Shown: positions 4,751 to 58,207 of the stretch, one piece after another
How the letters are laid out: each line of letters starts with the position of its first letter
How positions within the stretch are numbered: the first letter of the stretch is position 1
Virus record (IMG/VR): IMGVR_UViG_3300033150_001583
Span: 8,849 to 72,848 of that record
Length of the DNA: 64,000 bases
Origin: a virus
Direction: 5' to 3' (one strand)
The notes under the pieces: model-generated
Told to the model about the DNA's origin: nothing
The model's input: the letters and a program-made list of their open reading frames with translations, nothing else
Database searches by the model: none
Program-made: the position numbers and the translations under genes

Positions 4751-5445
4751 TAGCTATGGAGCGGACTAGAAATGTAGAAAATTCTTTGTATTATGCTTTT
4801 TGTGAAAAATTTTCGCGGTTGAAAGAAAAAGATACATTACAAACTGATGATAATCAAGAATACAAATTTTCTTATTCTCCTCTGTCTCCCTTTCATGATG
4901 TAACCATCTACAAGAATGGAGTTTCCATTACTAGTGGATTTGTAATCAACTACAGAGATGGTATTTTAACTTTTGATTCTCCTAATTTACCCGAAGATGT
5001 TATTGAAGCTGATTATTATTATCAGTATGTTACTGTATTGTTATCTTTTCCAGATGATATAGAGAACAAATTGGTAGTTCCTTCTATTGTTATAGACAAT
5101 AATGAGAACACCAATAGACCTTTAGAACTTGGAACGAGAAAGCGTAGATATGAGAATTATGAATTCAATATCATTATATTTGGAAGGAGAGATGGTGAAA
5201 GAAAAGATCTTTGTGACATAGCAAAAGAAATTTTTCGCGGGGAAAAACCTCTCATTGATTTTAATCAAGCATTCCCTCTGAATCAAGATGGAACTTTAAA
5301 TACTGCTTTTAATAAAGAAGCACAGACTATTGGTTACTTGGATTTTGAAGACATTGTTGCTTATCCCGTTAGGACTGATGAACTTACTGATCCTAAACGT
5401 AAAGCCATAATGATTGAGGTAACTGTAGTTGATACAGTCCTCTAA
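4747..5445 (+). CDS. Tail terminator protein with an inserted small beta-sandwich domain
   Basis: Directly upstream of the major tail protein; insert 'VTIYKNG...GILTFDSP...VIEADY' resembles DUF2460-type domains. Confidence 0.55.
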   Translation: MIAMERTRNVENSLYYAFCEKFSRLKEKDTLQTDDNQEYKFSYSPLSPFHDVTIYKNGVSITSGFVINYRDGILTFDSPNLPEDVIEADYYYQYVTVLLSFPDDIENKLVVPSIVIDNNENTNRPLELGTRKRRYENYEFNIIIFGRRDGERKDLCDIAKEIFRGEKPLIDFNQAFPLNQDGTLNTAFNKEAQTIGYLDFEDIVAYPVRTDELTDPKRKAIMIEVTVVDTVL

Positions 5446-5472
5446 TCTTAGAAAAAAAGGAGGTTAGAATAG

Positions 5473-7038
5473 ATGGTTAAGCCTGCAAGAGTACATTATT
5501 CTGGTACTGGCGTATTTGTTGACGATATCGACATGGATCGTGTTCAGGCTGTCGGGTCTTCGAGTAGGTACAACGATGAAGACCTTAAAGAATTGGGTAG
5601 CCTGAAGATTACTGAAGTTGTCGATGATGTTGAAGATATGGAGCTTACTCTTGATACTAATGAATATGGTTCCAATAAAACGCTCGCCAGTTTTGCCAAT
5701 AAAGGCTTTGGCTTAAGGGTTTTTGCTGTTCCCGATGGTTCTAACCCTGGTAGTGCTCAAATTAAGGTTGAAGAAGGTTCGTTTATTGTAAATGGTGTGA
5801 GGATTCCGTTTGCTGGGACAACTGTTCCTATTACTCCGCCTACTGCCGAGGATGCTGCTGTTGTTTCTATTAACACTGATCCCAATAACTTAACAGTTAG
5901 TATTACATTTAATGATGTTGGTAGTGAAAATCCAACAACTCCACCTCCTTGCCCTGCTGGAGAGGTAGAACTTGCTCATTTGCTCCATGTAGGAACAGAT
6001 GGAGTTGTTACGCAAGATAATATTGTTGACAAGAGAAGTTGGGCTACTATTGATATCCTTGATTTTGAGCTTGCTAAGGCTGATGTTTACATACCTGTTA
6101 TTCCATCTGGGGCATCTGAAATTCAGCGGACTTCTTACATGGAAAACGTATTTGTTAACAGAATTGACTTGAATTACACGGTTGACGGCGTAGCAACAGA
6201 AAATTATGGAGCTGAAACTGATAATAAAGTTTGGTACTTTAATGATTCCAAACATATAGTAGTTGATCAGTTTGAAGCTACTGGAGGCGAAACTAGCTAC
6301 GTCTTAAGTCGAACACCTACTCAACTTAAGAATGGCAAATATATGTTAAGGGCAATTTTGAATGGTAATGAAATGGAAGAGGGCACTGATTTTACTGTTG
6401 ATGCTGGTACTAACACTGTTACGTTTAGTGGTGTAACTTTAAGTGCTGGAGATCAAGTTAAGTTTAGATATACTTCTGGTAGCGGTGGAGTATTTCATGA
6501 TGACTCTGATGAAATGGTCTCTCTTGCTTATGAACATCCTGGCGGTGTTAAGGGAGGACATATCAAGGTATATCTTACTGAAAATGGTGTTGATAATGAG
6601 TTACTCAGGGTGCAGAGCGTGAGGATTTCTGCTTCTCTCACTAGAGAAGCCTTGAGACAGCTTTCTACAGTTAGACCTTATGAAAGACCGCTTAATATTC
6701 CTGTTGAAATTACATGTTCATTAGAGTTCACTGATAGTGACCTTGAGGTGTTAGCAAGGTTAGCTGGAGAAACTTATGATGCTAACGAGGGTGTTACTGG
6801 TACTAATTCAATTGATATTGGAAAGATACTTAAGGATAGAGGACTACTCGTTGAAATATATAGATTACATGATGAGCAGCGTGCGGAATTACCTGAAAAT
6901 CACCCGTTCCAATATCCTTTGAAGAAAGTGAGGATTCCATATTTAATTCCTACTGATGAGAATATGGAAGCGAGAGTTGATGCTAATAATACGCAAACAT
7001 TTGATTTTAGATCGCATAGGTTGCAGATAACTGCTTAA
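5473..7038 (+). CDS. Major tail (tube) protein with inserted accessory domains
   Basis: 521 aa, AAGGAGG RBS; 'RVQSVRISASLTRE.LRQL' tube-protein pattern; precedes the chaperones and tape measure. Confidence 0.7.
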   Translation: MVKPARVHYSGTGVFVDDIDMDRVQAVGSSSRYNDEDLKELGSLKITEVVDDVEDMELTLDTNEYGSNKTLASFANKGFGLRVFAVPDGSNPGSAQIKVEEGSFIVNGVRIPFAGTTVPITPPTAEDAAVVSINTDPNNLTVSITFNDVGSENPTTPPPCPAGEVELAHLLHVGTDGVVTQDNIVDKRSWATIDILDFELAKADVYIPVIPSGASEIQRTSYMENVFVNRIDLNYTVDGVATENYGAETDNKVWYFNDSKHIVVDQFEATGGETSYVLSRTPTQLKNGKYMLRAILNGNEMEEGTDFTVDAGTNTVTFSGVTLSAGDQVKFRYTSGSGGVFHDDSDEMVSLAYEHPGGVKGGHIKVYLTENGVDNELLRVQSVRISASLTREALRQLSTVRPYERPLNIPVEITCSLEFTDSDLEVLARLAGETYDANEGVTGTNSIDIGKILKDRGLLVEIYRLHDEQRAELPENHPFQYPLKKVRIPYLIPTDENMEARVDANNTQTFDFRSHRLQITA

Positions 7039-7054
7039 TTTTGATTATGAACAA

Positions 7055-7354
7055 TTGAATAATGAAAAGGCATTGGAAAGGAGTTTGGTATTGATGGACT
7101 ATAGGAAGAGTGATCGAGACTTTTTGAAGGAGAAGGTAAAGAAGTCGATTACTAAGGTATTCGATGAGGGTTTGACTTTACTTGAGTTGAATACCGATGA
7201 AGATAAATTTAAAAAACTTCGTTCTCGCCTTCTCAGGGTCGGAAACGATCAAATCAGGTTTATGATGAGTGAACTTAATAAGTACATAGTCACTTATAAA
7301 CCTATTAAGGAAGAGAGAATTGTTATTAAAAGGGATGAAGGCGAGAGCGATTAA
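7055..7354 (+). CDS. Hypothetical phage protein
   Basis: 99 aa ORF with TTG start, followed by a terminator. Confidence 0.5.
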   Translation: MNNEKALERSLVLMDYRKSDRDFLKEKVKKSITKVFDEGLTLLELNTDEDKFKKLRSRLLRVGNDQIRFMMSELNKYIVTYKPIKEERIVIKRDEGESD

Positions 7355-7372
7355 AGCTCTCGCTTTTTGTTT
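7341..7372 (+). terminator. Rho-independent terminator
   Basis: Stem GCGAGAGC (7341-7348) / GCTCTCGC (7356-7363), 7-nt loop, followed by TTTTTGTTT. Confidence 0.85.
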
Positions 7373-7400
7373 ATAAATATGAAAATGGAGGGGTAAGAGA

Positions 7401-14400: not shown

Positions 14401-16690
14401 TGTTGCTGAAATCGGTAAGGTTGTAAGAGGTTTGCAAAGAGCTACGATAGGTACTCCTGAATACTATCAGTTAGTAGAAAACTTGCGTACCAGATTAGAA
14501 AATCTCTACGGTTTGGATAAGAAGATCAACTCCTTAAGTGAAATTTTTAATCAAATGGCTGTTGAGCTTCCTGAAATCTATGGACAGTTGGCCGATTTAA
14601 GAACAAAGAAGGCTAACCGTGACTTAATAACATTATTTGAACAGATTGAGCAGGTAAATGAAGTATTTAGAGACACTACCCCTCTGTCGATGAAATATTT
14701 CGCGGTACAAAAAGACTTAGTAGAATTAGAACAAAGAGAGTTAGATATTTTAAATGATAGAGTTTCTGCTGCTCAAAAACTGTTTGAATTAACTGGTCAA
14801 GGATTGAGAGAATTTGTCACAATAGCAGGTCAACAAAGGGAGTACCGCAGGGCTTTACTAGAAAATCAACGTGCTCAACTTATTAATCAAATACTAGGCG
14901 GAAAATTTTCGGGGGAAGAATATCAAGCATTACTGAAAGAACTTGTATCAATCGAAAAGCAATGGATGGAACTAATTACTGAACGTAGAGATTTATTAAC
15001 TGAAAGCTTTAAACTTGGTATTATTTCTCTTGAAGAATATATTTCCAAATTAGATGAATTAAGAGATAAAAATTATGATTTAAGGTCTTCTATCTTAGAT
15101 CTAAGAACTACTATGGAAACAAGTATTAGAGAAGCATTTAAGAGTGCGTTAACTGGTGCTTTCACTGGTTCTTTGACGGCTGGCACAGATTTTATAAATT
15201 CAATTAAAAATTCACTTGCCGAGGCTGTATCCGAAAGTATTACTACTTCCCTATTAAACAACGCGGGAATAAAAGGATTATTAGATGAAACACTTAACGA
15301 GATTACTGAATCAATTTACAGTGGAAAGCTTATAGACGATGATGCAATAAGAGATAATTTACAACAAATAATAAATACTTTGTCTGGATACTTGCCTGCT
15401 TATAGAGATTTGCTAAGTGGAATTTTTGAGACGCTAGAGAATTCTGTATTTAACGCCCCTACTGGATTTAAAATTGAACCCTATTTGTATGAATTTATGA
15501 AGGCGCGTGGGCCAGAAGCATTCCCTGGCATAAATTTACCGCCTGATTATGAAAGTGGCACTACTCCCCTACCCTTACCTGAAAATCCTCCTGTGGAGGA
15601 AGTAAAAGTACCAAAAGTACCAGAAAATCCGATAAGAGAAACGTTAGATTTGTTATTTGTAGGACTCGATGAAAAATTTAGAGAACTAACTGATAGAGTT
15701 AGTACTTATTTCGATGAAGTTATTGAAACGTTTGATATATCTAATGTTATTTCTGATATATTGGACAGATATGGTATTAAAGTTGATAGAGGAACTGATT
15801 TTCAGGGAGCTTTAAGACAGGCATTTGATAAGGTTCTTGAGTTAAAGAGAACCTACATGGAGGCAGCTCGTAGGAATGACCAGACTACAATGGAAGCTGC
15901 ACATAAAAGTGCTGATGAAATTCGTAGAAAAATATCTGAAGCTACTGGTGCATCAATTAGTAAAATAAATGATTTAATAGGTGCAGGCAGGTCGTTATAT
16001 AGTATTAGTGAAAGTACTTGGAATCAACTACTTGAATTACCTGAGATTAAAGATGCGATTAATAATAATGCTTCTGCTATAGATTCTTTAAAAGATGCTT
16101 TAAGTAATATTACTATTAATGTTTCTGGTAGTTTTGGTTCTGTAAGTACTAGTGGAAAGGGGTCTGGTAAGAGTTCTGGACGTTCTAGTGGTTCTAGTTC
16201 ATCTGTGCCGAGTTCTGTTTTAGATAAAATTAGAAAGAACCAAGATACTTGGTGGGCTGAATACAACAAACATAAGGATACAATAGATCCAGGTAATCCT
16301 TCTACATGGACAGATGCAATGAAAAAAGCTCATGAAGAAAATGAGAAGCTAACTAGTAAATATGGTTTAGAGTCTGGTACAACCAAGAGATATCATACTG
16401 GTGGTAGAAGTCCTTTTGAACAATTAGCTTTATTAAGGCCAGGAGAAATAGTAATACCTCCTGATTTAGTCCAATTTATAGATAAAGTTCGTGGTAAAGC
16501 ACACTATAGCTTTAATAACACACCAACTGAGAATAATTTTAAAGTAGAGGTAAATGTAGAAGTTAATGGTGGTAATCCTGCTGATGTTACTAAAGCTGTT
16601 GAGGAAGGGGTACAAAATGCTATAAGACAAATCGAAAGAGAAAATCGTATGAATAATTTAAGGTTTAGAGGAGTTAGTTATGCTTATTAA
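8465..16690 (+). CDS. Tape measure protein with internal lytic transglycosylase (SLT) domain
   Basis: 2741 aa, largely helical; TP901-like TMP core around aa 440-740; SLT motif 'FISRESGFNPNAMN...SVGLGQIN' at about nt 13180-13270. Confidence 0.9.
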   Translation: MAKAYETQYIVTLSAVDESLLETLTGQNGVLGALNQIQQKIEQINKTPITIRTKIEDKEAKPSSGGSSSGGTGGISSGGGRPPKHNKRSLDTAEVNQVAAASKKIAKGYNELAGSIEKLKQVGKVSLGKDLGITAKTIGSLRDLGEASGNAGTGLEKVASALEGIGQAKGFSAVKNLGANLTNIRRVEGLGDAAIRAGTGLNEIANALQRMGDVKKIGPTITYTNKQIGKFISTLRHLDQKGTKALVGLETRLASIQQRINDTISKINALSTVGASKLEAFQQRQTKRSISQEQKQDLEKIKEATSAQAQELEKQYLSAMRNIQRQRFGRAMTIADMLGVKIDPRDYQHMFDFNVQLQAAREQVRKMLEQHKRTKQSLYSVIPLYDEMGNKVSQFAVMVDRAGRVIYNFDRDLIQLFQNMFYRMGVWAIATAGVYMFINAIKEAIQYMKDLSRQLKLLEIAAGGLNIGEIIEGIGRLVSEYGGTVAEAVDITYQFVKVLRDEEKALEATKLALMAYNISGLEYDESAELLIGVMNQYNLSIREARDLMDAWAVASRKGTVDFKELAEAFNKSAVAANELGISYKELTAMIEAVGTASGESGKEIGNFVKFILEHARDLETLYAVQEVAGVPVFTETGEYRSTFDVLVDLGKAWKDLSDDQRNYVKTAWASYRQGARFKALMEATSRDIEEFGSTLGILKEIHEGYGEAAYQNALVLNTLQGAFQKLQGVYTTFVQSFTDSGLAQLIKFAVKGLYTLLDLFNKTDDAGTHFLSLISAIITRIAIMARQGMGTLARSIGEFKDAMNSFARAQEVAGTQGAAAQEKIRSEIGVTNTALNHQIALVDRLIAGYRRLFGTEVPQTVKEATKDTEKIIPSRVFSPKTPVTPRQPVDLSYIPSPRKTTPSGIIVPGGISRDFVTSYDRKFNMGLIGRVQDRISKFSNAIRSSLDGIIVSMRNLGNKIPATLRKIDDSFAKALRSSNLFGDALLKIERGEIKAGRAGKTLTGIITTINTALTATTGVIGRLKFAIRGLMAAIPEILLLSLAFEAVYKGIEKIGEAWDKSVERRALYERNRVQAFAMAREDFHKMLAEGRKLYLMPEKERTLTKYEEEELRRLEEREKEGLTTSDEVRLEELRAKKRRQERFQEIRERTTLDLYEWGQHITPEDLMLMDEEEVDRLLDEYFKKLPQKVKEEIKVAKEKIKEEKALRLPLIDPAEISKYETEVNRFFDKINRRLKEYKNQLDYVRESYLGLGSSNEYYKTVLEELTQVQSVILDNYDETNMKLFQVQNKYNEATNALRDYEELLRRQGKDVESMWKKIYTGEIDDSDSDIKKLKEYYDAQQRYEALLVKAKQEQANLNKELVNTKKEMLDLVMSSNEYAGVWDSIQQRIKLVKQTLADLRNIRLTEGVGERIAEIGIEVFGRGWDKPTFLINRISGNIDKLFSNITKIEESLALFGDDQEKLREALDKVKFGEIGQQMKVAVTDPIIQQAKETLKVEERQEEVLKEIKEGIGDLTKTLTEEKFGEGSGKVELGALGWHDLREKTLSGERSITAIVKEYAQKYGDPRLFALTMGFISRESGFNPNAMNTKGEYSVGLGQINLQGAAGKRNISILKEVLKEQGIDLEQAKLAETGIFGKRASSVLYRGEKIKSWEEYLKDPEINIAVTMRRIKEDLERAGGDFIGLMRNYVGPKVPNEEIIRRAKEVNKYAGWELINIDELTKKLKYGNAEGRILAEAQESRKDLVNAEKESVKLLRENISELRQMLIYSLNTIPELAEVLEGLGNVWSGFSVSKAELYRRNIERAFDKIKDIPSLLTKGLEEALKGAVGEYYDAAIAEQEKQYQKEISLREKLITVDRSLAESHSTILENIKDKLIDLLRDAPLDKVDAILDKIREVYNEIVSAKKVELFENLFREIDVNSLLSGISPIFGIDLVNVVDSIKEDLVDLFKQHPDRRGEVENTLRAINDIATQVKYNTTYHVAEIGKVVRGLQRATIGTPEYYQLVENLRTRLENLYGLDKKINSLSEIFNQMAVELPEIYGQLADLRTKKANRDLITLFEQIEQVNEVFRDTTPLSMKYFAVQKDLVELEQRELDILNDRVSAAQKLFELTGQGLREFVTIAGQQREYRRALLENQRAQLINQILGGKFSGEEYQALLKELVSIEKQWMELITERRDLLTESFKLGIISLEEYISKLDELRDKNYDLRSSILDLRTTMETSIREAFKSALTGAFTGSLTAGTDFINSIKNSLAEAVSESITTSLLNNAGIKGLLDETLNEITESIYSGKLIDDDAIRDNLQQIINTLSGYLPAYRDLLSGIFETLENSVFNAPTGFKIEPYLYEFMKARGPEAFPGINLPPDYESGTTPLPLPENPPVEEVKVPKVPENPIRETLDLLFVGLDEKFRELTDRVSTYFDEVIETFDISNVISDILDRYGIKVDRGTDFQGALRQAFDKVLELKRTYMEAARRNDQTTMEAAHKSADEIRRKISEATGASISKINDLIGAGRSLYSISESTWNQLLELPEIKDAINNNASAIDSLKDALSNITINVSGSFGSVSTSGKGSGKSSGRSSGSSSSVPSSVLDKIRKNQDTWWAEYNKHKDTIDPGNPSTWTDAMKKAHEENEKLTSKYGLESGTTKRYHTGGRSPFEQLALLRPGEIVIPPDLVQFIDKVRGKAHYSFNNTPTENNFKVEVNVEVNGGNPADVTKAVEEGVQNAIRQIERENRMNNLRFRGVSYAY

Positions 16691-16694
16691 TTTA

Positions 16695-16726
16695 TCCTTC
16701 CCCGTGGAAATTTTTGCGGGGAAGGA
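16695..16726 (+). terminator. GC-rich hairpin after the TMP stop (possible terminator)
   Basis: Perfect 10-bp stem TCCTTCCCCG / CGGGGAAGGA; the U-tract is displaced by about 8 nt. Confidence 0.55.
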
Positions 16727-16958: not shown

Positions 16959-17917
16959 GTTGGAAATACGGAAGTTATGTTTTTGAAATAGACCCTTATT
17001 CCTCCACTGAGGAAATAGAATATATAGGAGATAAAATTGTAACATCTAGCGGTCGAAAAATAATTGAACCAACGACTTATAAGACCGCTAGATCTCTTTC
17101 CTCTGTTTTTTATCAGCCTAGTACACATAAAATTGAAACTAAAAATCTTCCTTATAATAATATTCAATGTGTTGATTTTTGGGGAGAAAAATATTATTTG
17201 GGTTTAGATGATGGTTCTATTGTTATAACTAATAGAAATTTTCGCGGGGACAACGAATTAACTCCAGCTATAGAGCCTAATGTAAAAGGAATTACCTTTG
17301 ATTCAGTTGAAATTTGGGTCTTAACCCAAGTGGACTCAACTACTCATAAATTATATTCACTTAGTCCTGTGGATGGTACTATTAGCTCAACCTATTCTTA
17401 TTCGGGTATAGTTTCAGGATTAGTTTATATTGGAGAATATCCCTTTGGATATTTATACAAACAGTATCAAAATGGTTTAATAGAGAAGATAGATCCAAGT
17501 AGTGGTGATGTAGTTGGCACATATGATTTATTGACTTCTTACGGTACGGATTTTTTCGGCGCAACAAAAAAAGATAATTACTACATAACCACTAATGATA
17601 ACGAATATATTAACTTTGTAGATTTGACTAAAAACAAAATCATCGACAGCGAAAAAATAAGCACTAACATTAGCGACCTCACTAACATTAGTGCCAACAA
17701 TTATTTCCTTATTTCTAATGATTATAGTATTTATAGGATCAATTCTGTCCTATTAGATCTAGACCAACTTGAAAAAGAAATCAAAACAGGAAAAGTTATC
17801 TTGGAAGATGATTTAGGAAACCAAGTAAACGTATCAATTAACAATTACAATTTCGAACGGCTACAAAACCATTATAAGGCTTTTATTGTGAATTTGAATG
17901 TTACTGAGGTTGGTTAA
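16955..17917 (+). CDS. Distal-tail-like protein with inserted beta-propeller-like domain
   Basis: N- and C-termini align by eye with 18642..18983; middle has repeated short beta-strand/Asp-Gly turns. Confidence 0.5.
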   Translation: MSWKYGSYVFEIDPYSSTEEIEYIGDKIVTSSGRKIIEPTTYKTARSLSSVFYQPSTHKIETKNLPYNNIQCVDFWGEKYYLGLDDGSIVITNRNFRGDNELTPAIEPNVKGITFDSVEIWVLTQVDSTTHKLYSLSPVDGTISSTYSYSGIVSGLVYIGEYPFGYLYKQYQNGLIEKIDPSSGDVVGTYDLLTSYGTDFFGATKKDNYYITTNDNEYINFVDLTKNKIIDSEKISTNISDLTNISANNYFLISNDYSIYRINSVLLDLDQLEKEIKTGKVILEDDLGNQVNVSINNYNFERLQNHYKAFIVNLNVTEVG

Positions 17918-18641: not shown

Positions 18642-18983
18642 TTGCAAATGCAAATAGGAAACTTTGTATTTGATTATCAACCTTTAAGTATGAATAAAAA
18701 TGTTGAAACTACATTGAGTGAATCTGTTAGTGTAGATGGTGTTATTACTTCTACCCCTGAAAATTTTTCTACGATAAGGCATTATATTATTTATTTATTT
18801 GAAGATTCAACATATCGGAAGTTAGAAAATTTTCGCGGGGAAATAAAAAAAGGAAAAACAACTCTCATTGATGAGTTTGATATAAAACATGAAGTATTAA
18901 TTACAAGAGTATCCAACGCAAGAAAATTAACCGCTGAACCATATCCAGTATATAGAATAGAATTAGAGGTTGACCTACTATGA
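18642..18983 (+). CDS. Distal tail (Dit)-like small protein
   Basis: 113 aa between TMP and baseplate hub; apparent paralog of the ends of 16955..17917. Confidence 0.45.
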   Translation: MQMQIGNFVFDYQPLSMNKNVETTLSESVSVDGVITSTPENFSTIRHYIIYLFEDSTYRKLENFRGEIKKGKTTLIDEFDIKHEVLITRVSNARKLTAEPYPVYRIELEVDLL

Positions 18984-20506
18984 GAAATATAACTTCAACT
19001 CAACAAGAGATTCTTAATTCCAATGAAAGAAAAGTAGTCCAAACTGTAAAAATATATAGAAATGATTATCCTGATACTCCTATTAATATCACTAGTAGAG
19101 TTGAGGATATTCGTATAAATTATGATTTAAATTCTAGAAACGCCACATGCCAGCTTACTATAGATAATTCTGATTATACTTACTCTCCTCATAATAGAAA
19201 CAGCAATATTAATCAAGTGAATTCGGTTTACAATCCCCTACTCTACCCTAACCATAAGGTAGAAATTTTTGCGGGGTTTGAAACATCACAAGGAAATGAA
19301 GAATGGCAGTTATTTACTGGTATTACTGGCGATGAAATAAATACTCAAACTATTCCAGGAAAAATTTTAATGACAATAAGAGATATGTCAAAGAGACTTC
19401 AAGATAAATATGTATATCTTTCTCAATCTTATGATTATCAATTGGCTGAAGATGTAATTCAAGGATTATTAAATGAATTTGGTTTTACTGATATAAATTT
19501 GATAGTTAGCGAACCAACTAATTATGTTATTCAACATTATCAGATTAAGGATAGTAACCTTTGGGATGGACTCCAAAAAATAGCTGATCTTATGGGTTGG
19601 ATTTTAATGTTTAATTACAAGGGAGATTTAATATTTAAAAAGGTAAATGATGGGTCTTCTCCCGCAAAAATTTTTGGCGAGAATGAATTCATTAGAGAGG
19701 AAATTAACATTACTGATGCCGATATACGCAACGTAATAAAGGTCAAAGTTCAAACTCCTGATGGCGTTATTGATGTTGAATTAAGAGATCAATCTTCTAT
19801 TGATGAGTTTGGAGAACGTTTTATGGAGGTTGATCGTGATCTAAGTTCGATGATACATACTTACGAGCAGGCTTTTCAGCTTGCAAGTGCTATTTTAAGA
19901 GATTTAGCACATTTTAAAGAACCTTATACTCTTCCTCTACCCCTCTACCCTCCTATTGAGCTTGATGATATTGTTGCTTCTCAGAGTAGTAAGACGGGTT
20001 TAGAGGGGACGGAGTTATTTAAAGTTGTTGGTATTGAACATCAAATAAGTGCTACTTCTAAGAGAACGGTTTTGAATTTACAAAGTTATATTCCACCAGA
20101 AGAAACTACGGGCAAAATACCCAACCCTCCCTCTGGTCTAATAGGAGAAATAATTTCGCGGGAAATAAATAACTACCCGAATTCAGGTTGGACTGGTAAT
20201 ACTAAGACAGTTTATTATCCGAAAATTTCTTTTACTAAACCTACTCAAAATACTGATGGAACTGCTTTAGATAATTTAGCGGGATATTTAGTAGCCAGAT
20301 CTACTACTTCTTCTACTGATGGTTTTATTCAGTTAAAGTCTGTTCCTGCTTTTGATGCTCAAGGTAATGATCGGACGTTTTTTATAGATTACTCTGCTCC
20401 TGCGGGAAATTGTTGGTATAAAATGGCTGCTATAAATACCCAAGGCAGGATTTCGAGTTATTCGGGAATGGTTCAGGTCACAGTTCCTACGGTTAATATC
20501 AGCTAA
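18980..20506 (+). CDS. Baseplate hub / tail-associated (Tal-like) protein with C-terminal FN3-like domain
   Basis: Hub-like motifs ('IRNVIKV', 'SIDEFGER'); C-terminal 'PNPPSGL...WYKMAAIN..G.IS.YS' FN3 pattern. Confidence 0.7.
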   Translation: MRNITSTQQEILNSNERKVVQTVKIYRNDYPDTPINITSRVEDIRINYDLNSRNATCQLTIDNSDYTYSPHNRNSNINQVNSVYNPLLYPNHKVEIFAGFETSQGNEEWQLFTGITGDEINTQTIPGKILMTIRDMSKRLQDKYVYLSQSYDYQLAEDVIQGLLNEFGFTDINLIVSEPTNYVIQHYQIKDSNLWDGLQKIADLMGWILMFNYKGDLIFKKVNDGSSPAKIFGENEFIREEINITDADIRNVIKVKVQTPDGVIDVELRDQSSIDEFGERFMEVDRDLSSMIHTYEQAFQLASAILRDLAHFKEPYTLPLPLYPPIELDDIVASQSSKTGLEGTELFKVVGIEHQISATSKRTVLNLQSYIPPEETTGKIPNPPSGLIGEIISREINNYPNSGWTGNTKTVYYPKISFTKPTQNTDGTALDNLAGYLVARSTTSSTDGFIQLKSVPAFDAQGNDRTFFIDYSAPAGNCWYKMAAINTQGRISSYSGMVQVTVPTVNIS

Positions 20507-32415: not shown

Positions 32416-33252
32416 ATGTTATCTGAGGTGAGACTTGTTGAAATAGAAATTCATAGCAAATGTAATCGTAAGTGTTTATGGTGTCCAAATAGAGAGTTGG
32501 ACAGAACAAAGTTTATAGAGATGTCGTCAAGTATTTATAAAAAATTTTTATATGAATTGCGAGATGGTAACTTTAGTGGCACTATAACTTACTCAAGATA
32601 TAATGAGCCATTTTATGATATTAGCCTGTTCAAAAAAAGAGTGAAAGAGGCAAAATCAATTTTGCCAGATGTAAAACTTGTAACTAATACTAATGGGGAT
32701 TTTTTATCTCGCGAAAATTTAGATGGCCTTTTAATAGATGATTTAACTATCATGGATTATGACTGTATTGGTTTATATCAGTGTCAGCGGAGATTAATAG
32801 AGTTGGGTGTTAAGATAACTAAACTCGATTATCCATATATTTACGGAACACATAAAAATATTAGTAAGGTGTTGTATTTTGTTGATTGGCCTAGACATGC
32901 GCTTTTTGAAGATAGGGGTGGTTTTCTAAGAGATAAAAATTTGCGGTGGAAAAATAATCGAGAAAGAAGAAAGAGACCATGCTTAGAACCAAGGTATTTT
33001 ATTGCAGTTGATTATAATGGTAATGTTACTCCTTGTTGTCATATTCGTAGTGATATCAAAGAGCATAAGCCTTATATTTTGGGAAATTTATATCAACAAG
33101 ATATTGTGACTATTTTTTATAGCGATAAGGCTAGAAAATTTAGGGAGTTATTATCTAGTAATAAATATGATGAATATCCCTTCCCCTGTCAACATTGTCA
33201 AAAAGATGCGGGGAGATATACAAGAGATAATCCTAGCATTGATTTTGATTAA
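32416..33252 (+). CDS. Radical SAM enzyme with Twitch/SPASM domain (paralog)
   Basis: CNRKCLWC; same C-terminal Cys pattern; visibly similar to the upstream gene. Confidence 0.85.
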   Translation: MLSEVRLVEIEIHSKCNRKCLWCPNRELDRTKFIEMSSSIYKKFLYELRDGNFSGTITYSRYNEPFYDISLFKKRVKEAKSILPDVKLVTNTNGDFLSRENLDGLLIDDLTIMDYDCIGLYQCQRRLIELGVKITKLDYPYIYGTHKNISKVLYFVDWPRHALFEDRGGFLRDKNLRWKNNRERRKRPCLEPRYFIAVDYNGNVTPCCHIRSDIKEHKPYILGNLYQQDIVTIFYSDKARKFRELLSSNKYDEYPFPCQHCQKDAGRYTRDNPSIDFD

Positions 33253-43251: not shown

Positions 43252-43290
43252 TCTTTTCCCCCGCGAAATTTTTTGTGAGGAGGGGTCATA

Positions 43291-43554: not shown

Positions 43555-44256
43555 GTGAAGTTGATTACTAAAGATTTTTTAACAATAAATAAATATTCGC
43601 GTCCAGGTATAAAACTTAAAGGTATTAAAGGAGTTGTAGTACATTGGACGGCTAATCCTAAAACTACTGCAAAAAATAATAGAGATTATTTTGAGAGTCT
43701 AAAAGATAGAAAAAATACATATTGTTCTGCTCACTACATTATTGGACTTAAAGGAGAAATTGTTCAGTGTATCCCCGATGATGAAATGGCGTATCATGTG
43801 GGAAGTAAAACATATACTCAGGAAGCTCTTAAAAGACTTTCGATATATCCTAATAATTGTACAATAGGAATTGAATGTTGTATTTTAGATTGGGAGGGGC
43901 GTATGACAAATGATACGTACTCCTCCCTACTTTATCTTTGCAAAGAACTTTTAAAAAGACATAATTTAACTGCTGATGATTTGTGGCTTCATAAGGAAGT
44001 AGTGGGTTGGAAGGATTGTCATCGTTGGTTTGTTAATCATCCTGATGAGTGGCAAAAATTTAAGGAAGAAGTGAGAAAGAGTATGTCTGAAAAGGATGAT
44101 TGGCGAGTCAAGCTGGGTCAAGAAGCTGTAAAATTTTTGGCGGAAGAAAAAATTATAAATAATCCAGATGTTTGGAAGGACAAAATGAGAGAACCTGTTG
44201 AAAATTGGCTGTTTTTTGAGTTGATAAAAAGAACCATAAAAAAACTAAATAAATGA
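43555..44256 (+). CDS. Endolysin, N-acetylmuramoyl-L-alanine amidase (Amidase_2)
   Basis: 'GVVVHWTAN', 'SAHYII', 'AYHVG', 'N..TIGIE.C', 'LHKEV.G.KDC' motifs. Confidence 0.9.
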   Translation: MKLITKDFLTINKYSRPGIKLKGIKGVVVHWTANPKTTAKNNRDYFESLKDRKNTYCSAHYIIGLKGEIVQCIPDDEMAYHVGSKTYTQEALKRLSIYPNNCTIGIECCILDWEGRMTNDTYSSLLYLCKELLKRHNLTADDLWLHKEVVGWKDCHRWFVNHPDEWQKFKEEVRKSMSEKDDWRVKLGQEAVKFLAEEKIINNPDVWKDKMREPVENWLFFELIKRTIKKLNK

Positions 44257-45536: not shown

Positions 45537-46565
45537 ATGAGGTTAATGGAAAAGGAAAAAACTTCGCTTAGTATTGCTTTAGATGCTATTCGTAAAGACT
45601 ACGGCAAGGAAGCAATTATGTGGGGTAATTCAAAGCAAATTGTTAACATTGATGTTATTCCTTCTGGCTCTCTTTCGCTTGATATTGCAACAGGTATAGG
45701 AGGAATACCAAGGGGTAGATTAGTAGAAATTTTTTCGGAGGAATCAAAAGGAAAAACGACACTTGCCCTACATATTATTGCCGAGGCTCAAAAAATGGGC
45801 CTTTGTTGTTCTTTTGTTGACTGTGAGCACGCATTGGATAAGAGATATGCTACTGCTATTGGCGTTGACTTTGATAATTTGTTGATTTCACAGCCTGATA
45901 CAGCTCAGACTACAATGAATATAATTGAAGCTCTACTGCGTTCAGGAGAACTTGGGGTTATTGTCCTTGATAGTGTTGCAATGATGCCTTCAGAAAAGGA
46001 AGTTGAAGAGGATTTTTCTAAAGAAGAAGTCGGCTCTTTAGCAAAGATAATGTCTAAATCTATGCGTAAGCTCTTAAGTCTTGCTAGGAAATCAAAGACA
46101 TCACTGATTTTCTTAAATCAGGTTCGCGAAAAAGTTAGCATGTTTGGAGGTGGCGGACTTACTACTCCAGGTGGCAGGGCATTAAGGCATGGGGCTTCTA
46201 TGAGGATTTGGTTAGATTTTGCCGAGAGTCCCAAAAAATCTGTTATTAGAGATAGTAATGGAGATCCTGTTGGTCTCAAAATCAGGGCTGAAGTAGTGAA
46301 AAATAAATTAGCTGTTCCTTTTGGAGAAGCTTTTTACGATATTAAGTTCGGAAAAGGTATTTCGAGAGAGTCTGAGTTGGTTGATTTGGGTGTTATGTAT
46401 GGGGTTTTAACTAAGTCTGGTGCTTGGTTTAGGTATAAGGATGAAAATATTGCCCAAGGCAGGGAGAACTGCAAAAAATTTTTCGCGGAAAATAAAAATA
46501 TAGCAAATGAACTAGAACATGAAATTAGAATAAAGGCGGGGATTTTAAATCATCCCAATACGTAA
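45537..46565 (+). CDS. recA: RecA recombinase
   Basis: 'SGSLSLDIATGIGGIPRGR.VEI...ES.GKTT', 'FLNQVREK', 'GGRAL', 'VKNKLA.PF'. Confidence 0.95.
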   Translation: MRLMEKEKTSLSIALDAIRKDYGKEAIMWGNSKQIVNIDVIPSGSLSLDIATGIGGIPRGRLVEIFSEESKGKTTLALHIIAEAQKMGLCCSFVDCEHALDKRYATAIGVDFDNLLISQPDTAQTTMNIIEALLRSGELGVIVLDSVAMMPSEKEVEEDFSKEEVGSLAKIMSKSMRKLLSLARKSKTSLIFLNQVREKVSMFGGGGLTTPGGRALRHGASMRIWLDFAESPKKSVIRDSNGDPVGLKIRAEVVKNKLAVPFGEAFYDIKFGKGISRESELVDLGVMYGVLTKSGAWFRYKDENIAQGRENCKKFFAENKNIANELEHEIRIKAGILNHPNT

Positions 46566-47464: not shown

Positions 47465-48838
47465 TTGAGGCTCCCTTCTGAACTCAGGCAGAAAATGGAT
47501 GAGATTTCCGATGTAGCTTCTGAAAGGTCTGTTCTTTCTATATTGATAAACCATCCAGACCTTTATTATGACATTTTTTCTGAGGTTAATGTGGATTACT
47601 TTTCTAATTCTCAAAACAGAGAAATTTATAAGCTTATTTATAGTTATTTATCTAATAAGAAAGGGCTTTACAAGATTAATACTTATATTCTCTCTGATTT
47701 AGCCAAAAAACATGGTATTTTAGAAAAAATCGGGGGTAGAGATTATTTAAAAGCACTTGAAGATGTTAATAGTCCTAAAGAAAATTTGAGATTTTATCTT
47801 GATCAGTTGAAGTTTTATTATGTCCGCCGCCAAATTTTTGTTAAAGGATATGAGATACAGGAAGAAGCCTTAAACACTGAAACAAATGACTTAGATAAAT
47901 TTTTGGCGGAACAAGAAAGCAAACTAGTTGATATTTCATTAAAAACAAAGTATGGAGATGGTGTAGAAAACTTACTAGAAGATTTTGATACCCTTCTTGA
48001 AGAAAGAACCAAAAATCCAGGAGAAGTCTATGGTATCCCTACCCCTTTTAAAGAATTTAATAGGGCTACAGGCGGTCTTGTGGGTAATAGGCTTTATGTA
48101 ATTGGTGCTCGTTCGAAGAACTTTAAATCAGGGACGCTGATGAATATAGCCGTTTATGTTGCTAAGAATGTGGGTAATGTTCTTCTTCTTGATACTGAGT
48201 TAGATAAAAAACTTCAGCAGATACGTTTGTTGGCTATTTCTTCTGGCGTGCCTGAAAAAATGATTCAAAATGGTACTTTTATCAATGTTAAAAAATATCG
48301 GGAAGCTATAGAAAAAACCAAAAAATTTTTGCGGGGTAAAAAATTATTCCATAAGCACATACCTGTTTTCACTACTGATGAAATTGAGTACTTGGCACGA
48401 AAATACTACTTAAGAGAAAATATTAAACTGCTTGTTTTTGATTATATTAAAGAACCCGAAGACGATAATAAATATCGTTCTAAAAGAGAAAAACTTGGCG
48501 ATGTAACCATGAAACTTAAAGCTATATCTGCAAAATTAAATATACCTGTATTGACTGCTGTGCAGCTTAATAGGTTAGCTATTGACCAAAAAACCCTTGG
48601 TGAGGGCCATGTAGCTGAGTCTGATTTGATATTACAGAATGCAGACTACCTATTTTTTCAACGTTGGAAGACTGAAGAAGAACGCGAAGAGGAAGAGGGC
48701 AATTTTATTATCCAAGCTGGCCCTTCTCGATTTGGTTGCGAATATGAAGGGTGGTTCAATATTTATTCTTCTTTAAGAATGGAGGAATTAGGTAATTTCT
48801 ATATGGGTGAAAGTAAAGTGCTTGAAGAAGAATTCTAA
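47465..48838 (+). CDS. dnaB: Replicative helicase (DnaB family)
   Basis: 'E.SVLS.L', Walker A 'GARSKNFKS', 'LLVFDYIK', 'AVQLNR', 'ESD.I.Q.AD'. Confidence 0.9.
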   Translation: MRLPSELRQKMDEISDVASERSVLSILINHPDLYYDIFSEVNVDYFSNSQNREIYKLIYSYLSNKKGLYKINTYILSDLAKKHGILEKIGGRDYLKALEDVNSPKENLRFYLDQLKFYYVRRQIFVKGYEIQEEALNTETNDLDKFLAEQESKLVDISLKTKYGDGVENLLEDFDTLLEERTKNPGEVYGIPTPFKEFNRATGGLVGNRLYVIGARSKNFKSGTLMNIAVYVAKNVGNVLLLDTELDKKLQQIRLLAISSGVPEKMIQNGTFINVKKYREAIEKTKKFLRGKKLFHKHIPVFTTDEIEYLARKYYLRENIKLLVFDYIKEPEDDNKYRSKREKLGDVTMKLKAISAKLNIPVLTAVQLNRLAIDQKTLGEGHVAESDLILQNADYLFFQRWKTEEEREEEEGNFIIQAGPSRFGCEYEGWFNIYSSLRMEELGNFYMGESKVLEEEF

Positions 48839-48865
48839 AAAAATTTCGCGGGTATAAAAGGAGGA

Positions 48866-52432: not shown

Positions 52433-53728
52433 GTGCCTATAGCTGAAGAAACTTTGTTAGTGACTAGAAAGGGCATACTCCCTTTTTCTGCTTTTATTAA
52501 AGATAAACAACATAGGAGAGATATTTTATATCCTGTTGGGCGAGATATGTTTATCAGAGCTTTAAATAATTATGAGACTACATTTGAGGGATACCTGTTT
52601 TTTGGCAAAGGAGAAGCTATCAGAATAACAACATTAACTGGTTATTCTGTTATTGCTTCTCCTGATCAAAGGGTAAGAATTGTTAATTCTACTGGAAATT
52701 ATAGCTGGAGGCGCATGGAAAGTTTACAGGGTGGCGATTGGGTTGTCTTACAGATGAATTCTTATCCTGATTATGTTGATGATTTTTCACCGACTTTGTT
52801 AAAAGAGCCTTTAGATGATGAAGACATGGTTTTGCCTACAAGATTAACACAAGAGTTGGCAGAGTGGCTTGGATATTTTTTATTCAGGGGGATTCTTTTT
52901 TACCCCGAAAAAGATAAAAAGGCTCAAATTGGGTTTATATATAGCAACGAAAAAATAAAAAATTATCTGATAGGTTTAACGGCAAAACTTTTTGGGATAA
53001 GTGATTATGAGAAAATAGAAGGATTGGGTCTTCATAGTGCAGGTGCATTTGGTTATCAGTCCAATACACTGTTTAAGTGGCTGATTAGCGTTGGGTTATT
53101 AGGTTCTGAAGGTATTCCTCAAATTCCCTCTCTCATTTTTCGCGGGGGAAGAAAGATGATATATCCATTTTTGAGGGGAGCTTTTTCAGCCTGTTGTTTA
53201 GTAGAAGAATTGAAAAATAAGAGAGTTATTAAGTTGTATTCTCCTTATATTGACTTGATTCGAGAATTACAGATACTCTTACTTTCAATTGGTATTCCAA
53301 CAATAATAAATACTTCTATTCAGGATTCTGATTACTTATTTACTCTATATGTAATAACTAAAAAGGGACTTAAGAACTTTAGAGACAATATTGGTTTTTT
53401 TGATTCGCCTTTAAGCAATGCTTTAGAGGAGATAAATTTACTCAATTATGCACCAGAGAAAAAAATCGGGGGGCTAAGAGAAATATATGAGGAAGACCCT
53501 AAAAACTTAAAGAGTAGAAGCCAAACCGATATACTTAGGATTAAAAGGTTATTCACAGATGTAAGAGTGATGACACTTTCTAAAACATTAATTTGTGAAG
53601 TATTTAATGAGAATCATCTGTATGACCAAGTAATTTCAATCGAAAAAACCAAAGCAAAGCTTTATGAACCGAGATTAATTGGCAAAAGAAGCTTTGTGGG
53701 TAATGGATTTGTATTTTTTGTTGAGTAA
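52433..53728 (+). CDS. Free-standing intein-like protein (Hint-N, LAGLIDADG, Hint-C) with degenerate catalytic motifs
   Basis: Block A-like 'PIAEETLLVTRKG', block B-like 'VIASPDQRV', LAGLIDADG-like 'LAEWLGYFLFRG' and 'FLRGAFSACC', block F/G-like 'LYEPRLIGKRSFVGNGFVFF'; no extein on either side. Confidence 0.75.
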   Translation: MPIAEETLLVTRKGILPFSAFIKDKQHRRDILYPVGRDMFIRALNNYETTFEGYLFFGKGEAIRITTLTGYSVIASPDQRVRIVNSTGNYSWRRMESLQGGDWVVLQMNSYPDYVDDFSPTLLKEPLDDEDMVLPTRLTQELAEWLGYFLFRGILFYPEKDKKAQIGFIYSNEKIKNYLIGLTAKLFGISDYEKIEGLGLHSAGAFGYQSNTLFKWLISVGLLGSEGIPQIPSLIFRGGRKMIYPFLRGAFSACCLVEELKNKRVIKLYSPYIDLIRELQILLLSIGIPTIINTSIQDSDYLFTLYVITKKGLKNFRDNIGFFDSPLSNALEEINLLNYAPEKKIGGLREIYEEDPKNLKSRSQTDILRIKRLFTDVRVMTLSKTLICEVFNENHLYDQVISIEKTKAKLYEPRLIGKRSFVGNGFVFFVE

Positions 53729-53970: not shown

Positions 53971-54400
53971 ACTTGGAGGATTAAACACTACAATCAATGA
54001 TACGGACACCCCTGGATTGACTTTAAGCGTGTTTTTTCAGGGGTGTTCAAGACATTGTTATAACTGCCACAATCCTGAGTTGTGGGATCATGATGGTGGT
54101 CGTGAAGCTGATACAGACGAAATAATTTCGCGGGTAAAAAATAATCGGGATTGGTATGATTCAGTTGCATTAATGGGTGGAGAACCGCTTGAACAACCCG
54201 AAGCCTTAAGAGATTTACTGAAAAAACTAAATGAATTAGATATTGAAGTATGGTTGTATACTGGTTTTGATTATGAGGAAATTCCAGAAGATATAGTAAG
54301 GTTGTGCGATGTAATAATAGCGGGGGCTTATGTGGATGAACTAAAGACAAATTCGTTTCCCGCCTCTTCTAATCAACAAGTCATAGATAGGAGGCGATAA
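53960..54400 (+). CDS. nrdG: Anaerobic ribonucleotide reductase activating enzyme
   Basis: 'FFQGCSRHCYNCHNPE', 'GGEPL', 'SSNQ'; adjacent to nrdD. Confidence 0.9.
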   Translation: MKFRLGGLNTTINDTDTPGLTLSVFFQGCSRHCYNCHNPELWDHDGGREADTDEIISRVKNNRDWYDSVALMGGEPLEQPEALRDLLKKLNELDIEVWLYTGFDYEEIPEDIVRLCDVIIAGAYVDELKTNSFPASSNQQVIDRRR

Positions 54401-56470: not shown

Positions 56471-56504
56471 TTGTGAACCTTGAAAATAGCTAACTTCATG
56501 GTGG

Positions 56505-56535
56505 GTTCTGGAGTAAACTATGTGGAATGGGAAAT
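56505..56535 (+). CRISPR. Solitary diverged CRISPR repeat followed by a putative guide
   Basis: GTTCTGGAGTAAACTATGTGGAATGGGAAAT sits at the position equivalent to repeat 1 of the main array; its ATGTGGAATG pairs with CATTCCACAT in the copy-2 tracr. Confidence 0.65.
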
Positions 56536-56580
56536 GGTTATTAATTGGAATACATTTGAATTCTATTAGGAGGGGTTTGA

Positions 56581-56820: not shown

Positions 56821-56828
56821 AAGTTTCT

Positions 56829-56860
56829 CCCCCTCCCTACCCTACCCTCCCCTACCCTAC
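56829..56860 (-). repeat. Intergenic G-run tandem repeat (GGGTA-like)
   Basis: + strand CCCCCTCCCTACCCTACCCTCCCCTACCCTAC: six C-runs of 3 or more. Confidence 0.8.
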
Positions 56861-56883
56861 TATAAAAATAAATTAATTAAGGA

Positions 56884-57360
56884 GTGAGTTTTTTGGTACA
56901 GATTAAAGTTAAAAAAATCGGCGGGGCTAGTGGTATTGATAATATTCCTAAAAAGGCCACAGCAGGAAGTGCTGGTGTTGATTTAGTTGCAGTTGATTTT
57001 AAATATGGCAATAAAGAGTTCCAAAAAGAGTTTATACTCAAACCTGGTTGTTCTGTTTTAGTTAGGACGGGAATATGTGTCGAAATTCCTGAAGGATATG
57101 AGATGCAAATTCGACCTCGCAGTGGATTAGCTTTGAAGTATGGAATTACTGTTTTAAACAGTCCAGGTACTATTGATTCTGATTATAGAAATGAGGTTGG
57201 TGTTATTTTAATTAATCACGGCAAGAGACCTTTTAAAATACGAGCAGGAGATCGCATTGCTCAGGCTGTAGTTAAACCTGTTCCTGAAGTAGAATACGTT
57301 GAGGTTGACGAATTGTCTGAAACTGAACGCAAAGGTGGGTTTGGTAGTACAGGTAAGTAG
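56884..57360 (+). CDS. dut: dUTPase (trimeric)
   Basis: 'AGSAGVDL', 'IRPRSGLA', 'GTIDSDYR', 'GDRIAQ', 'RKGGFGSTG'. Confidence 0.95.
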   Translation: MSFLVQIKVKKIGGASGIDNIPKKATAGSAGVDLVAVDFKYGNKEFQKEFILKPGCSVLVRTGICVEIPEGYEMQIRPRSGLALKYGITVLNSPGTIDSDYRNEVGVILINHGKRPFKIRAGDRIAQAVVKPVPEVEYVEVDELSETERKGGFGSTGK

Positions 57361-57561
57361 TTGAGGGGGTTGGATAAGTTGGTATCTATGCAGAGAGAAA
57401 AGAACGAGGAGATTCTTGAATATCAAAAAATATGCGATGACTGCATGAGAGGATGCAAGGCTGTCAAAAAGGTTAAGAAAAAATCATCTGGTAAAATTAT
57501 AATTTTTGGTGATCTTGTTGTTTGTCCTAAGTTCGAAAAGAAAAAGAAAAATAAGGAATAA
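57361..57561 (+). CDS. Small Cys-rich hypothetical protein
   Basis: CDDC...C...CPKF pattern. Confidence 0.45.
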   Translation: MRGLDKLVSMQREKNEEILEYQKICDDCMRGCKAVKKVKKKSSGKIIIFGDLVVCPKFEKKKKNKE

Positions 57562-57574
57562 AGAATGATGGAAA

Positions 57575-58207
57575 ATGAAAATACAAGGATATATAGTTAA
57601 AGGAAAAGGCACTTATTATAAGGTGTGTCAAGAGGTCTGGGAGAATTACGAAGTTTACTTATTTGATAAAAAATGTCCTAGAAACCAGTGGGTAAAAGAT
57701 AGTTCAACAGTCGAGCCTGAATTTTTTCTTGACGGCGAAAAAATTCCTCATGAGTTAGAGGAGTTGGAATGGCGGGAGCCACCTGATGAGTATGACTTTG
57801 AAATTTTAGAGCATCCTTTTTATGCATATGTTTATAAGAATTGGGTGGCATCTAAGTGGATTACTAGGGATATTAAAACGGGCATGAAGGTTTTCAGAAA
57901 AGAAATTCCTCCCCGATCTCTTGACACTATGGCTATTCCTTTAAGAGAAATAAGACATCTTTTACCATGGAAAATTAAATATCGTAAATTTTTTGATAGA
58001 CTTGAAAAACAGCTTGATGTTAGGCTTAACTATTATCGTGAACTCGAAATAACAAAAATTTCGCGGGGAGAATTTAAAAGAATTTTTGTTCCTTTTGATA
58101 GGAAAGAAGTTTTTGATAACTATTTTGAGGCCAAGAATTATGTAGATTATCTAACTGATTTTATTAAGGAAAAGATAAGGGAGGAAAATATTTATGGAAA
58201 CCGTTAA
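57575..58207 (+). CDS. Hypothetical protein
   Basis: 210 aa ORF in operon context. Confidence 0.55.
   Translation: MKIQGYIVKGKGTYYKVCQEVWENYEVYLFDKKCPRNQWVKDSSTVEPEFFLDGEKIPHELEELEWREPPDEYDFEILEHPFYAYVYKNWVASKWITRDIKTGMKVFRKEIPPRSLDTMAIPLREIRHLLPWKIKYRKFFDRLEKQLDVRLNYYRELEITKISRGEFKRIFVPFDRKEVFDNYFEAKNYVDYLTDFIKEKIREENIYGNR

Follow-up and report, generated by a model that had tools for sequence, protein, structure and literature searches.

The repressor of phage L5 and its Cluster A relatives (gp71 family) recognises 20–30 asymmetric sites distributed across the genome, most of which are stoperators that block elongation; the sites are 13 bp long, sit in short intergenic spaces, are mostly co-oriented with transcription and mostly lie off promoters, and their consensus differs among heteroimmune relatives (PMC6550527). 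The C1 repressor of P1 has 22 operators with an asymmetric 17-bp consensus, dispersed on a plasmid-prophage genome (PMC8546580). Here we analyse a 64-kb stretch of viral DNA (positions 8849–72848 of the 139,584-bp IMG/VR virus record IMGVR_UViG_3300033150_001583, hereafter the window) and the 8-mer TTTCGCGG, which is dispersed over the window and over the rest of the genome. To our knowledge, genome-wide stoperator-style control has otherwise been described only in actinobacteriophages and P1. We tentatively read the motif copies as dispersed, asymmetric sites at which a DNA-binding regulator specific to the phage would bind, comparable to the L5 stoperators or the P1 C1 operators, with a probability of roughly 40%.

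In the window TTTCGCGG is found 13 times (12 copies on the plus strand and one on the minus strand) versus 0.40 expected, and none of 100 dinucleotide shuffles reached 13. The initial annotation of this DNA had reported the same 12 and one sites, all 13 at their exact coordinates (Table 1), with an expectation below 1; the seven near-variants that it listed are also all present on the plus strand (TTTTCGCGCA, TTTTTGCGGG three times, ATTCGCGGGG twice and ATTTGCGGGG). The whole genome contains 30 copies (21 plus, 9 minus) versus about 2 expected, and TTTCGCGG/TTCGCGGG is its most over-represented 8-mer under an order-3 Markov model (z 13–15); TTT precedes 25 of the 32 genomic occurrences of CGCGGG. 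Based on the 30 aligned copies, the consensus is AAAAWTTTCGCGGGRAAAA, with the scheme AAAAW-TTTCGCGG-G-R-AAAAAA, a length of about 20 bases and an information content of about 24 bits, versus the 13 bits sufficient to mark 30 places in this genome. The flanks are conserved (A in 77–90% at positions −5 to −2 and G in 83% at +8, followed by an A-rich run), and the consensus is not self-complementary, the site being asymmetric and lacking dyad symmetry. Scanning with position weights derived from the 30 copies (at least 12 bits) gives 82 matches at 73 loci, versus about 4 expected in Markov-simulated genomes, which amounts to about 30 strong and about 40 weaker sites genome-wide. The wider motif family beyond the exact core includes TTTTGCGGGG, TTTGGCGGG, TTTCGGCGG and TTTCGGGGG.

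Selection on the motif acts on the nucleic acid, not on the protein, as the initial annotation had claimed; this follows from the reading frames, the codons used, a codon shuffle and a comparison with an orthologue. Inside open reading frames (ORFs) there are 16 exact sense copies versus 1.37 expected when synonymous codons are shuffled within each gene (maximum 6 in 300 shuffles), so that the enrichment survives the codon-aware null which had been named beforehand as the test able to overturn it. The ORF-internal exact copies occupy all three frames (6, 7 and 3 in frames 0, 1 and 2) and are spelled with rare codons (TCG is 7% of Ser, CGG 4% and CGC 5% of Arg, GGG 15% of Gly and GCG 10% of Ala). 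Among the relatives, G006 is the closest one usable for comparison (its TerL is 48% identical and its core syntenic); it has the same residues at three of the sites with other codons: S-R is TCT CGT (twice) and R-G is AGG GGT there, versus TCG CGG and CGC GGG in the phage. Conservation at synonymous sites was compared with G006 alone, which has no copy of the motif.

The motif is private to this phage and is not a feature of its relatives, whose TerL proteins are 41–50% identical. The copies of TTTCGCGG in five long IMG/VR relatives number 0, 7, 2, 2 and 0, which is no enrichment, and elsewhere in IMG/VR the 16-mer form matches any single contig at most once. A megablast search of 50,697 phage records was without a match and a DnaB-based locus search found no near relatives; the closest TerL proteins among 5.8 billion proteins are 44–51% identical and are named Clostridia and Paenibacillus. 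The host is probably a member of the Bacillota.

Concerning orientation, the genes run on the plus strand from about 139.1 kb via 0 to 75.7 kb and on the minus strand from 75.7 to 139.0 kb. Every gene in the window is on the plus strand, so the 12:1 ratio found there is one of strand and of sense alike. Across the genome, co-orientation with the genes holds for 19 of the 26 exact sites and for 45 of the 61 ORF matches (74%), where the synonymous null is already 64–71% sense, depending on the cut-off. At 12 bits or more, the ORF-internal matches comprise 45 sense versus 8.4 and 16 antisense versus 4.4 in synonymous shuffles (5.4-fold and 3.6-fold); the sense:antisense ratio is 2.8 versus 1.9–2.5 from coding-strand composition alone, and the modest sense excess is confined to the highest-scoring copies. 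The strand bias reported earlier is real in the counts, but it is largely explained by gene orientation and a purine-rich coding strand, which weakens its reading as a polarity of the DNA. Because both orientations are enriched in ORFs, a duplex binding site is suggested. The loci are spread near-uniformly along 139.5 kb, at about 1 per 1.9 kb, with exact copies at 1 per 4.6 kb. The sparseness noted earlier at about 22.3–43 kb, in the fibre/enzyme island, is present but only mild (5 loci versus 11.8 expected, P=0.02). A mild excess is seen at 100–111 kb (11 loci versus 5.8 expected, P=0.03), a region of small early genes with their promoters; the excess of exact copies there is stronger (8 loci in 8 kb versus 1.5 expected).

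Some copies form inverted pairs. The initial annotation had called the motif a half-site of the palindrome CCGCGAAAWWTTTCGCGG; this palindrome exists in the genome, in two copies (102034–102051 and 118942–118959), but has none within the window. Both are perfect 22–30-bp inverted pairs between co-directional genes, and several further inverted pairs are imperfect. They were rejected as intrinsic terminators, as the T's stand before and the A's after the stem, the reverse of terminator flanks. The same palindrome in 36 bacterial contigs has mostly the usual A-run/T-run flanks, and a palindrome scan of IMG/VR matched six unrelated contigs, none of them enriched.

Among the candidates of the initial annotation was a binding site for a regulatory or nucleoid protein of the phage, and it is the one we favour, on the length, asymmetry and privacy of the word, its enrichment in both orientations and in intergenic DNA, its occurrence both singly and in inverted pairs, and the graded series of weaker variants; that a protein binds the sites, which protein it is and that it affects transcription are what we infer from these features. 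The word would be an asymmetric duplex DNA address of about 20 bp, read by a sequence-specific protein encoded by the phage. A single site would bind one protein unit, and the perfect (102.04 and 118.95 kb) and imperfect inverted pairs would bind two. The bound protein would act on transcription genome-wide: promoter-proximal sites would be operators, and sites inside or between genes would be roadblocks that silence or partition read-through. The minus-strand site of the window has a possible sigma70-like promoter (TTGGGG-N17-TGTAAT, by eye) on one side and, on the other, the ribosome-binding site (RBS) of ORF 43291–43542. A regulator is favoured because the genome carries a temperate/plasmid kit (two tyrosine recombinases, a ParM-like actin and ArdA) and the relatives are flagged as proviruses. 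A 188-aa helix-turn-helix-like ORF in the middle of the cluster (108692–109258) has a good sigma70-like promoter with a motif site upstream and contains another site; as a candidate binder it is only a lead. If the regulator reading is right, stoperator-style control extends beyond actinobacteriophages and P1 to large phages of (probably) Bacillota, and control sites can be written into conserved structural genes via rare synonymous codons. A private, long and codon-independent word would also be a computational handle on the immunity specificities of uncultivated phages.

Compared with L5, the sites likewise have no dyad symmetry, are dispersed (30 exact copies and 73 loci versus 20–30 sites), lie mostly off promoters and use a phage-specific word. 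The L5 genome is about 52 kb long, and on that length the density found here, 1 per 1.9–4.6 kb, is of the same order. There are also differences: most copies here are in ORFs, with 12 of the 30 exact ones located either in non-coding DNA or at most 30 nt from a start codon, which together make up 10% of the genome, and the promoter-proximal sites at 87–107 kb are anti-oriented. The word is about 20 rather than 13 bp long, is AT-flanked and forms two perfect inverted pairs; co-orientation is 74–80%, little above coding-strand composition, and the relatives have no counterpart motif. This phage, known here from sequence alone, has a genome of 139 kb and a host that is probably of the Bacillota. 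P1 has bivalent operators, some of its operators being paired into incomplete palindromes, and the inverted pairs found here match these; dispersed asymmetric sites and plasmid-maintenance-type genes are also in common. In contrast, the P1 operators lie at promoters of specific operons, whereas over half of the sites found in this phage lie deep in genes, the family has about 70 members and some sites adjoin promoter-like elements but most do not. The word does not resemble ATTGCTCTAATAAATTT in sequence, and no homologue of C1 was recognised.

Several points weigh against such a regulator. Between 2 and 5 G's follow CGCGG, and the downstream A-run therefore has no fixed register, which is unusual for a rigid protein footprint. 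In the plus block, 12 of the 14 exact copies are deep inside ORFs (structural and replication genes), unlike the intergenic gaps of L5. The pointing of the exact sites towards about 108 kb is unexplained by a binding-site model, and the GC-core variants TTTGGCGGG, TTTTGCGGGG and TTTCGGCGG, together with hairpins with co-varying stems, could mean a structural or RNA element. No clear repressor and no Pfam repressor family is found among the approximately 70 ORFs of the genome covered by the protein family scans (Pfam/PHROGs), and the helix-turn-helix-like ORF has an Atlas score of 0.84, under the 0.9 line. G006 and a second relative, G009, have no enriched word of their own at comparable strength, in contrast to the phages of Cluster A, all of which have one. 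Lysogeny, too, is something we infer, for a phage whose gene kit is of a temperate or plasmid-like type.

The pointing of the exact sites leads to the alternative of a polar signal for a translocating machine, which the initial annotation had also proposed and which we consider unlikely. The motif would then be either Chi-like, met by the host AddAB/RecBCD, shielding the phage DNA and loading the phage RecA, or a guide of the type of FtsK-orienting polar sequences (KOPS) or SpoIIIE recognition sequences for an FtsK/SpoIIIE-type pump and Xer-like recombinases. The 26 non-palindromic exact copies form two opposed arcs, plus at 7.0–107.5 kb and minus at 108.9–136.2 kb, the window site 43261 being the sole exception; within the minus gene block, six plus copies are followed by six minus copies (P=0.002, post hoc). 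Strong sites are densest on either side of the switch at about 108 kb, and the two that flank it (107452 and 108891) are 96% identical over 24 nt. The core ends in GCGG, as do the Chi sites of B. subtilis (AGCGG) and S. aureus (GAAGCGG), the exact sites are as dense (1 per 4.6 kb) as Chi is in E. coli, and the phage carries genes for RecA, a RuvB-like protein and two Xer-like recombinases. The two arms are, however, a property of the exact copies alone: the wider family does not keep a single orientation per arm, as Chi and KOPS do, being mixed at 76–108 kb (13 plus, 9 minus), and the enrichment of antisense ORF sites and a strand bias near coding-strand composition do not fit polarity either. 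Nearly all anti-oriented strong copies at 87–107.5 kb lie just upstream of RBSs, and the copies at 108.9–110 kb are co-oriented with their genes. Beyond the invariant 8-base core, the flanks are conserved for about 12 more bases and degenerate variants are enriched, which is unlike the 5–8 bases of Chi/KOPS. GC and AT skews at four-fold sites show no replication switch at 108 kb, and the recombinase genes are not near it. Host-wide enrichment is also missing from the genomes sampled: none of 401 Clostridia genomes is hyper-abundant, three further Clostridia genomes have modest counts and no polarity, ten Clostridia/Bacillota metagenome-assembled genomes (MAGs) holding the 17-mer of the motif show no enrichment, and G006 lacks the motif despite near-identical oligonucleotide usage (tetranucleotide r=0.83).

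Selenomonadales gave an apparent signal and were rejected as host: TTTCGCGG occurs 95 times versus 78.7 expected (order-3 Markov) and its flanks are not conserved. The motif-to-control ratio is an artefact there, because the control word GGCGCTTT is depleted. It is almost absent from G033, G013 and some 25 Selenomonadales genomes related to them, at 0–4 copies per 2 Mb where about 28 would be expected, and the top 8-mer there is AAAATTTT; these genomes show strong oligonucleotide avoidance, which makes a reversed-word control misleading.

The motif could also be a copy of a genome-wide 'self' or uptake-type word of its host, received from Peribacteria/Gracilibacteria via infection or DNA exchange and spread by the same drive or selection, an explanation that we regard as quite unlikely. 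The flanked 17-mer and 19-mer were scanned in 185,579 species genomes (596 Gb); the 19-mer occurs only 100 times, so the long word would be almost absent from any one host chromosome, and the only recurring genomes are three candidate phyla radiation (CPR) MAGs, two of Peribacteria (CAZYIR01 and CAZMOH01) and one of Gracilibacteria (JALVIB01). These contain 2038, 2030 and 2745 copies of TTTCGCGG in 0.8–1.0 Mb, about 1 per 400 bp, and it is their top 8-mer, with the consensus AAAATTTCGCGGGATTTT or AAAATTTCGCGG[GA]A. The copies are in ORFs, in all frames and both orientations, independent of gene strand, a pattern which resembles that of an uptake sequence. The phage shows a diluted version of it (both orientations enriched, even dispersal, intergenic inverted pairs), with a similar GC content (34%) and flanks in common (AAAA upstream, G-A downstream), and two independent hyper-abundant 8-mers are unlikely to match by chance. 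Against this, the density in the phage is about 10-fold lower and the downstream flank is GRAAAA rather than the GATTTT of two of the MAGs. Tetranucleotide usage correlates at r of 0.22–0.37 with the CPR MAGs, versus the far higher value for the motif-free G006, the TerL relatives are those named above, and the phage DnaE and RuvB have 41–46% identity to every lineage tested, being equidistant and uninformative for the host; none of these links the phage to the CPR MAGs. The shared core reflects either coincidence, a shared DNA-binding specificity or a host link. Known uptake sequences (the uptake signal sequence of Pasteurellaceae and the DNA uptake sequence of Neisseriaceae) are likewise scattered through ORFs in every frame and in either orientation, and they too have AT-rich flanks and intergenic inverted pairs; here, the bearer is a phage and not a competent cell, and the pairs lack terminator T-tracts. 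It is similarly improbable that the genome carries either such a shared word, the phage being a virus of ultra-small Peribacteria/Gracilibacteria-like bacteria, or a two-armed polar system converging at about 108 kb; a CPR-mimicking or two-armed KOPS/Chi-like phage genome would be an organisation not described so far. Bacteria of the Peribacteria/Gracilibacteria type are thought to live on scavenged DNA. A literature search on the word, and on uptake sequences in CPR bacteria, found nothing relevant; the word could be the first uptake-type sequence in these bacteria and may matter more than the phage motif.

In the Bacillota MAG WQUN01 (GC 55–61%; loci L292–L300), the repeat GCGGCAAATTTTCGCGGGAAAATCGC recurs across numerous small contigs, in some cases as inverted pairs with a spacing of about 46 nt. 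The motif copies of this MAG sit in that unrelated repeat and were discarded as a link to the phage.

An RNA or single-strand element, acting as the loop and 3' arm of GC-stem hairpins in transcripts or replication intermediates (in processing, stability or antitermination), is very unlikely. The hairpins share the loop GAAAWTTTT and differ in their stems, which are mutually complementary (CCCCGC/GCGGGG, CCCGCCCC/GGGGCGGG, CCGCC/GGCGG and CCCCG/CGGGG); also in favour, 74% of the ORF sites are sense and intergenic copies lie 5–35 nt before start codons. Most copies, however, have no left arm and are unable to fold, antisense copies are enriched too, and the 5' leaders of genes at 87–107 kb would carry the complement, a different RNA word. 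The palindromes have no terminator U-tract, which their bacterial look-alikes do have, and no Rfam family was matched.

A role as promoter element for a sigma factor or RNA polymerase that the phage encodes is highly improbable: the GC-rich core in AT-rich DNA followed by GGGRAA is reminiscent of phage-polymerase start regions, a weakly sigma-like 296-aa ORF (genome 106274–107164, minus block) adjoins the motif cluster and the motif is co-oriented with the plus block genes, but a gene follows only 1–2 of the 14 plus block sites, several strong sites face away from the adjacent gene, no single-subunit RNA polymerase is found among the ORFs scanned and the 16-mer TAGTATATCGGTTTGG is a better candidate. 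Identity with the Noc-binding site or parS of ParB-family proteins (TATTTCCCGGGAAATA) was rejected: the sites are dispersed as the chromosomal ones are and TTTCGCGGGAAA is one base from TTTCCCGGGAAA, but the palindromic TTTCCCGGG and TTTCGCGCGAAA have 0 copies and the varying length of the G-run means that a half-site register is not kept. The two ORFs that the initial annotation had taken for ParB fusions did not bear this out, as Pfam recognised no ParB or other family in them.

The 16-mer TAGTATATCGGTTTGG is repeated upstream of small minus-strand genes and is followed, 14–18 nt on, by a T-run, a GC block, A4T4 and then the RBS; three exact motif copies lie 15–18 nt after it. G006 has the related word CCGATAGA, with a strand split of 9:0. 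The 16-mer may be a promoter or leader of a phage-specific transcription class. Also, a GC-rich stretch of about 500 nt without a convincing ORF (genome 108078–108608; L017 15230–15760) lies exactly at the orientation change of the exact copies; it is flanked by canonical terminators and strong sigma70-like promoters, and an Rfam search of it gave no match.

The record ends share an exact 114-bp overlap (1–114 = 139471–139584), labelled 'direct terminal repeat', which indicates a circular assembly of about 139,470 bp and is no proof of physical termini. Stop-codon usage is standard, and Rfam and tRNA scans of the whole genome gave no match. The plus block contains structural genes (TerL, a portal-like protein, a 2741-aa tape-measure-like protein and tail fibres), enzymes (two radical SAM enzymes, RecA, a DnaB-like helicase, a TnpB/Cas12f-like protein, DnaG and a DnaE-type polymerase), an intein-like ORF and NrdD plus its activase. 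The minus block has about 110 ORFs, mostly small, and encodes a tyrosine recombinase, a RuvB-like protein, a ParM/Alp-like actin, ArdA, CCA-adding enzymes, ThyX, UDG and RNase H; the second tyrosine recombinase adjoins the terminase genes. In its predicted products (XerC/D-like recombinases, ParM/Alp-like actin, ArdA, RecA, RuvB-like protein, DnaB, DnaG and DnaE), the genome is equipped as a large phage-plasmid-like element would be. The positions of the motif copies and of other features are presented in Table 1.

Table 1. Positions of motif copies, variants and other features (window or genome coordinates, as stated)
Feature	Position	Strand	Context
Exact core TTTCGCGG	window 4811..4818	+	ORF 4747-5445, frame 1, F-S-R
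Exact core	window 5233..5240	+	ORF 4747-5445, frame 0, F-R-G; G006 has F-D-K
Exact core	window 14698..14705	+	2741-aa tape-measure-like ORF, frame 2, Y-F-A; GCG codon vs GCT in G006
Exact core	window 17240..17247	+	ORF 16955-17917, frame 0, F-R-G
Exact core	window 18831..18838	+	ORF 18642-18983, frame 0, F-R-G; 30.4-bit match
Exact core	window 20154..20161	+	ORF 18980-20506, frame 1, I-S-R; TCG CGG vs TCT CGT in G006 (same S-R)
Exact core, weak flanks	window 35687..35694	+	ORF 35352-37256, frame 2, F-A-G
Exact core, sole minus copy of the window	window 43261..43268	-	intergenic
Exact core	window 46481..46488	+	recA (45537-46565), frame 2
Exact core	window 48844..48851	+	intergenic; 6 nt past dnaB-like stop, directly before RBS of small ORF
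Exact core	window 53138..53145	+	intein/LAGLIDADG-like ORF 52433-53728, frame 0; CGC GGG vs AGG GGT in G006 (same R-G)
Exact core	window 54126..54133	+	nrdG-like radical SAM activase ORF 53945-54400, frame 1
Exact core	window 58059..58066	+	ORF 57575-58207, frame 1
Strong variant gaaaatTTTCGGGGgaag	window 14907..14914	+	22.1 bits
Variant ggaaatTTTTGCGGggaagg	window 16712..16719	+	20 bits; intergenic, after tape-measure-like ORF; hairpin with upstream CCCCG
Variant aaaaatTTTTGCGGgagaag	window 19662..19669	-	20.8 bits; antisense in ORF 18980-20506
Variant ctaaatTTTCGCGAgataaa	window 32709..32716	-	18.3 bits; antisense within ORF
Variant aaaattTTTGGCGGaagaaa	window 44136..44143	+	18.7 bits
Variant aaaaatTTTTGCGGggtaaaaa	window 48327..48334	+	22.6 bits; in dnaB-like ORF
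Full-length RecA	window 45537-46565	+	
Two XerC/D-like tyrosine recombinases, ParM/Alp-like actin, ArdA	genome 2588-3427, 75764-76735, 85194-86204, 104190-104717	-	
16-mer TAGTATATCGGTTTGG	genome 77286, 90963, 96148, 102085, 103139, 103821, 105058, 105353	-	L016/L017
CTAGTGCT	window 1724, 3438, 8940, 34138, 34855, 36706	+	
CTAGTGCT	genome 76192, 85520, 103954, 123705	+	
CTAGTGCT	genome 99554	-	
Loci in Peribacteria MAGs CAZYIR01, CAZMOH01	L073, L082, L086, L096, L099, L102, L143, L148		
Loci in Gracilibacteria MAG JALVIB01	L092, L104, L131		

A second word, CTAGTGCT, has 10 plus copies and one minus copy genome-wide versus 1.3 expected, an excess which is marginal once corrected for 65,536 words. 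Its bias tracks the DNA strand and not gene direction, since plus copies also occur inside the minus gene block.

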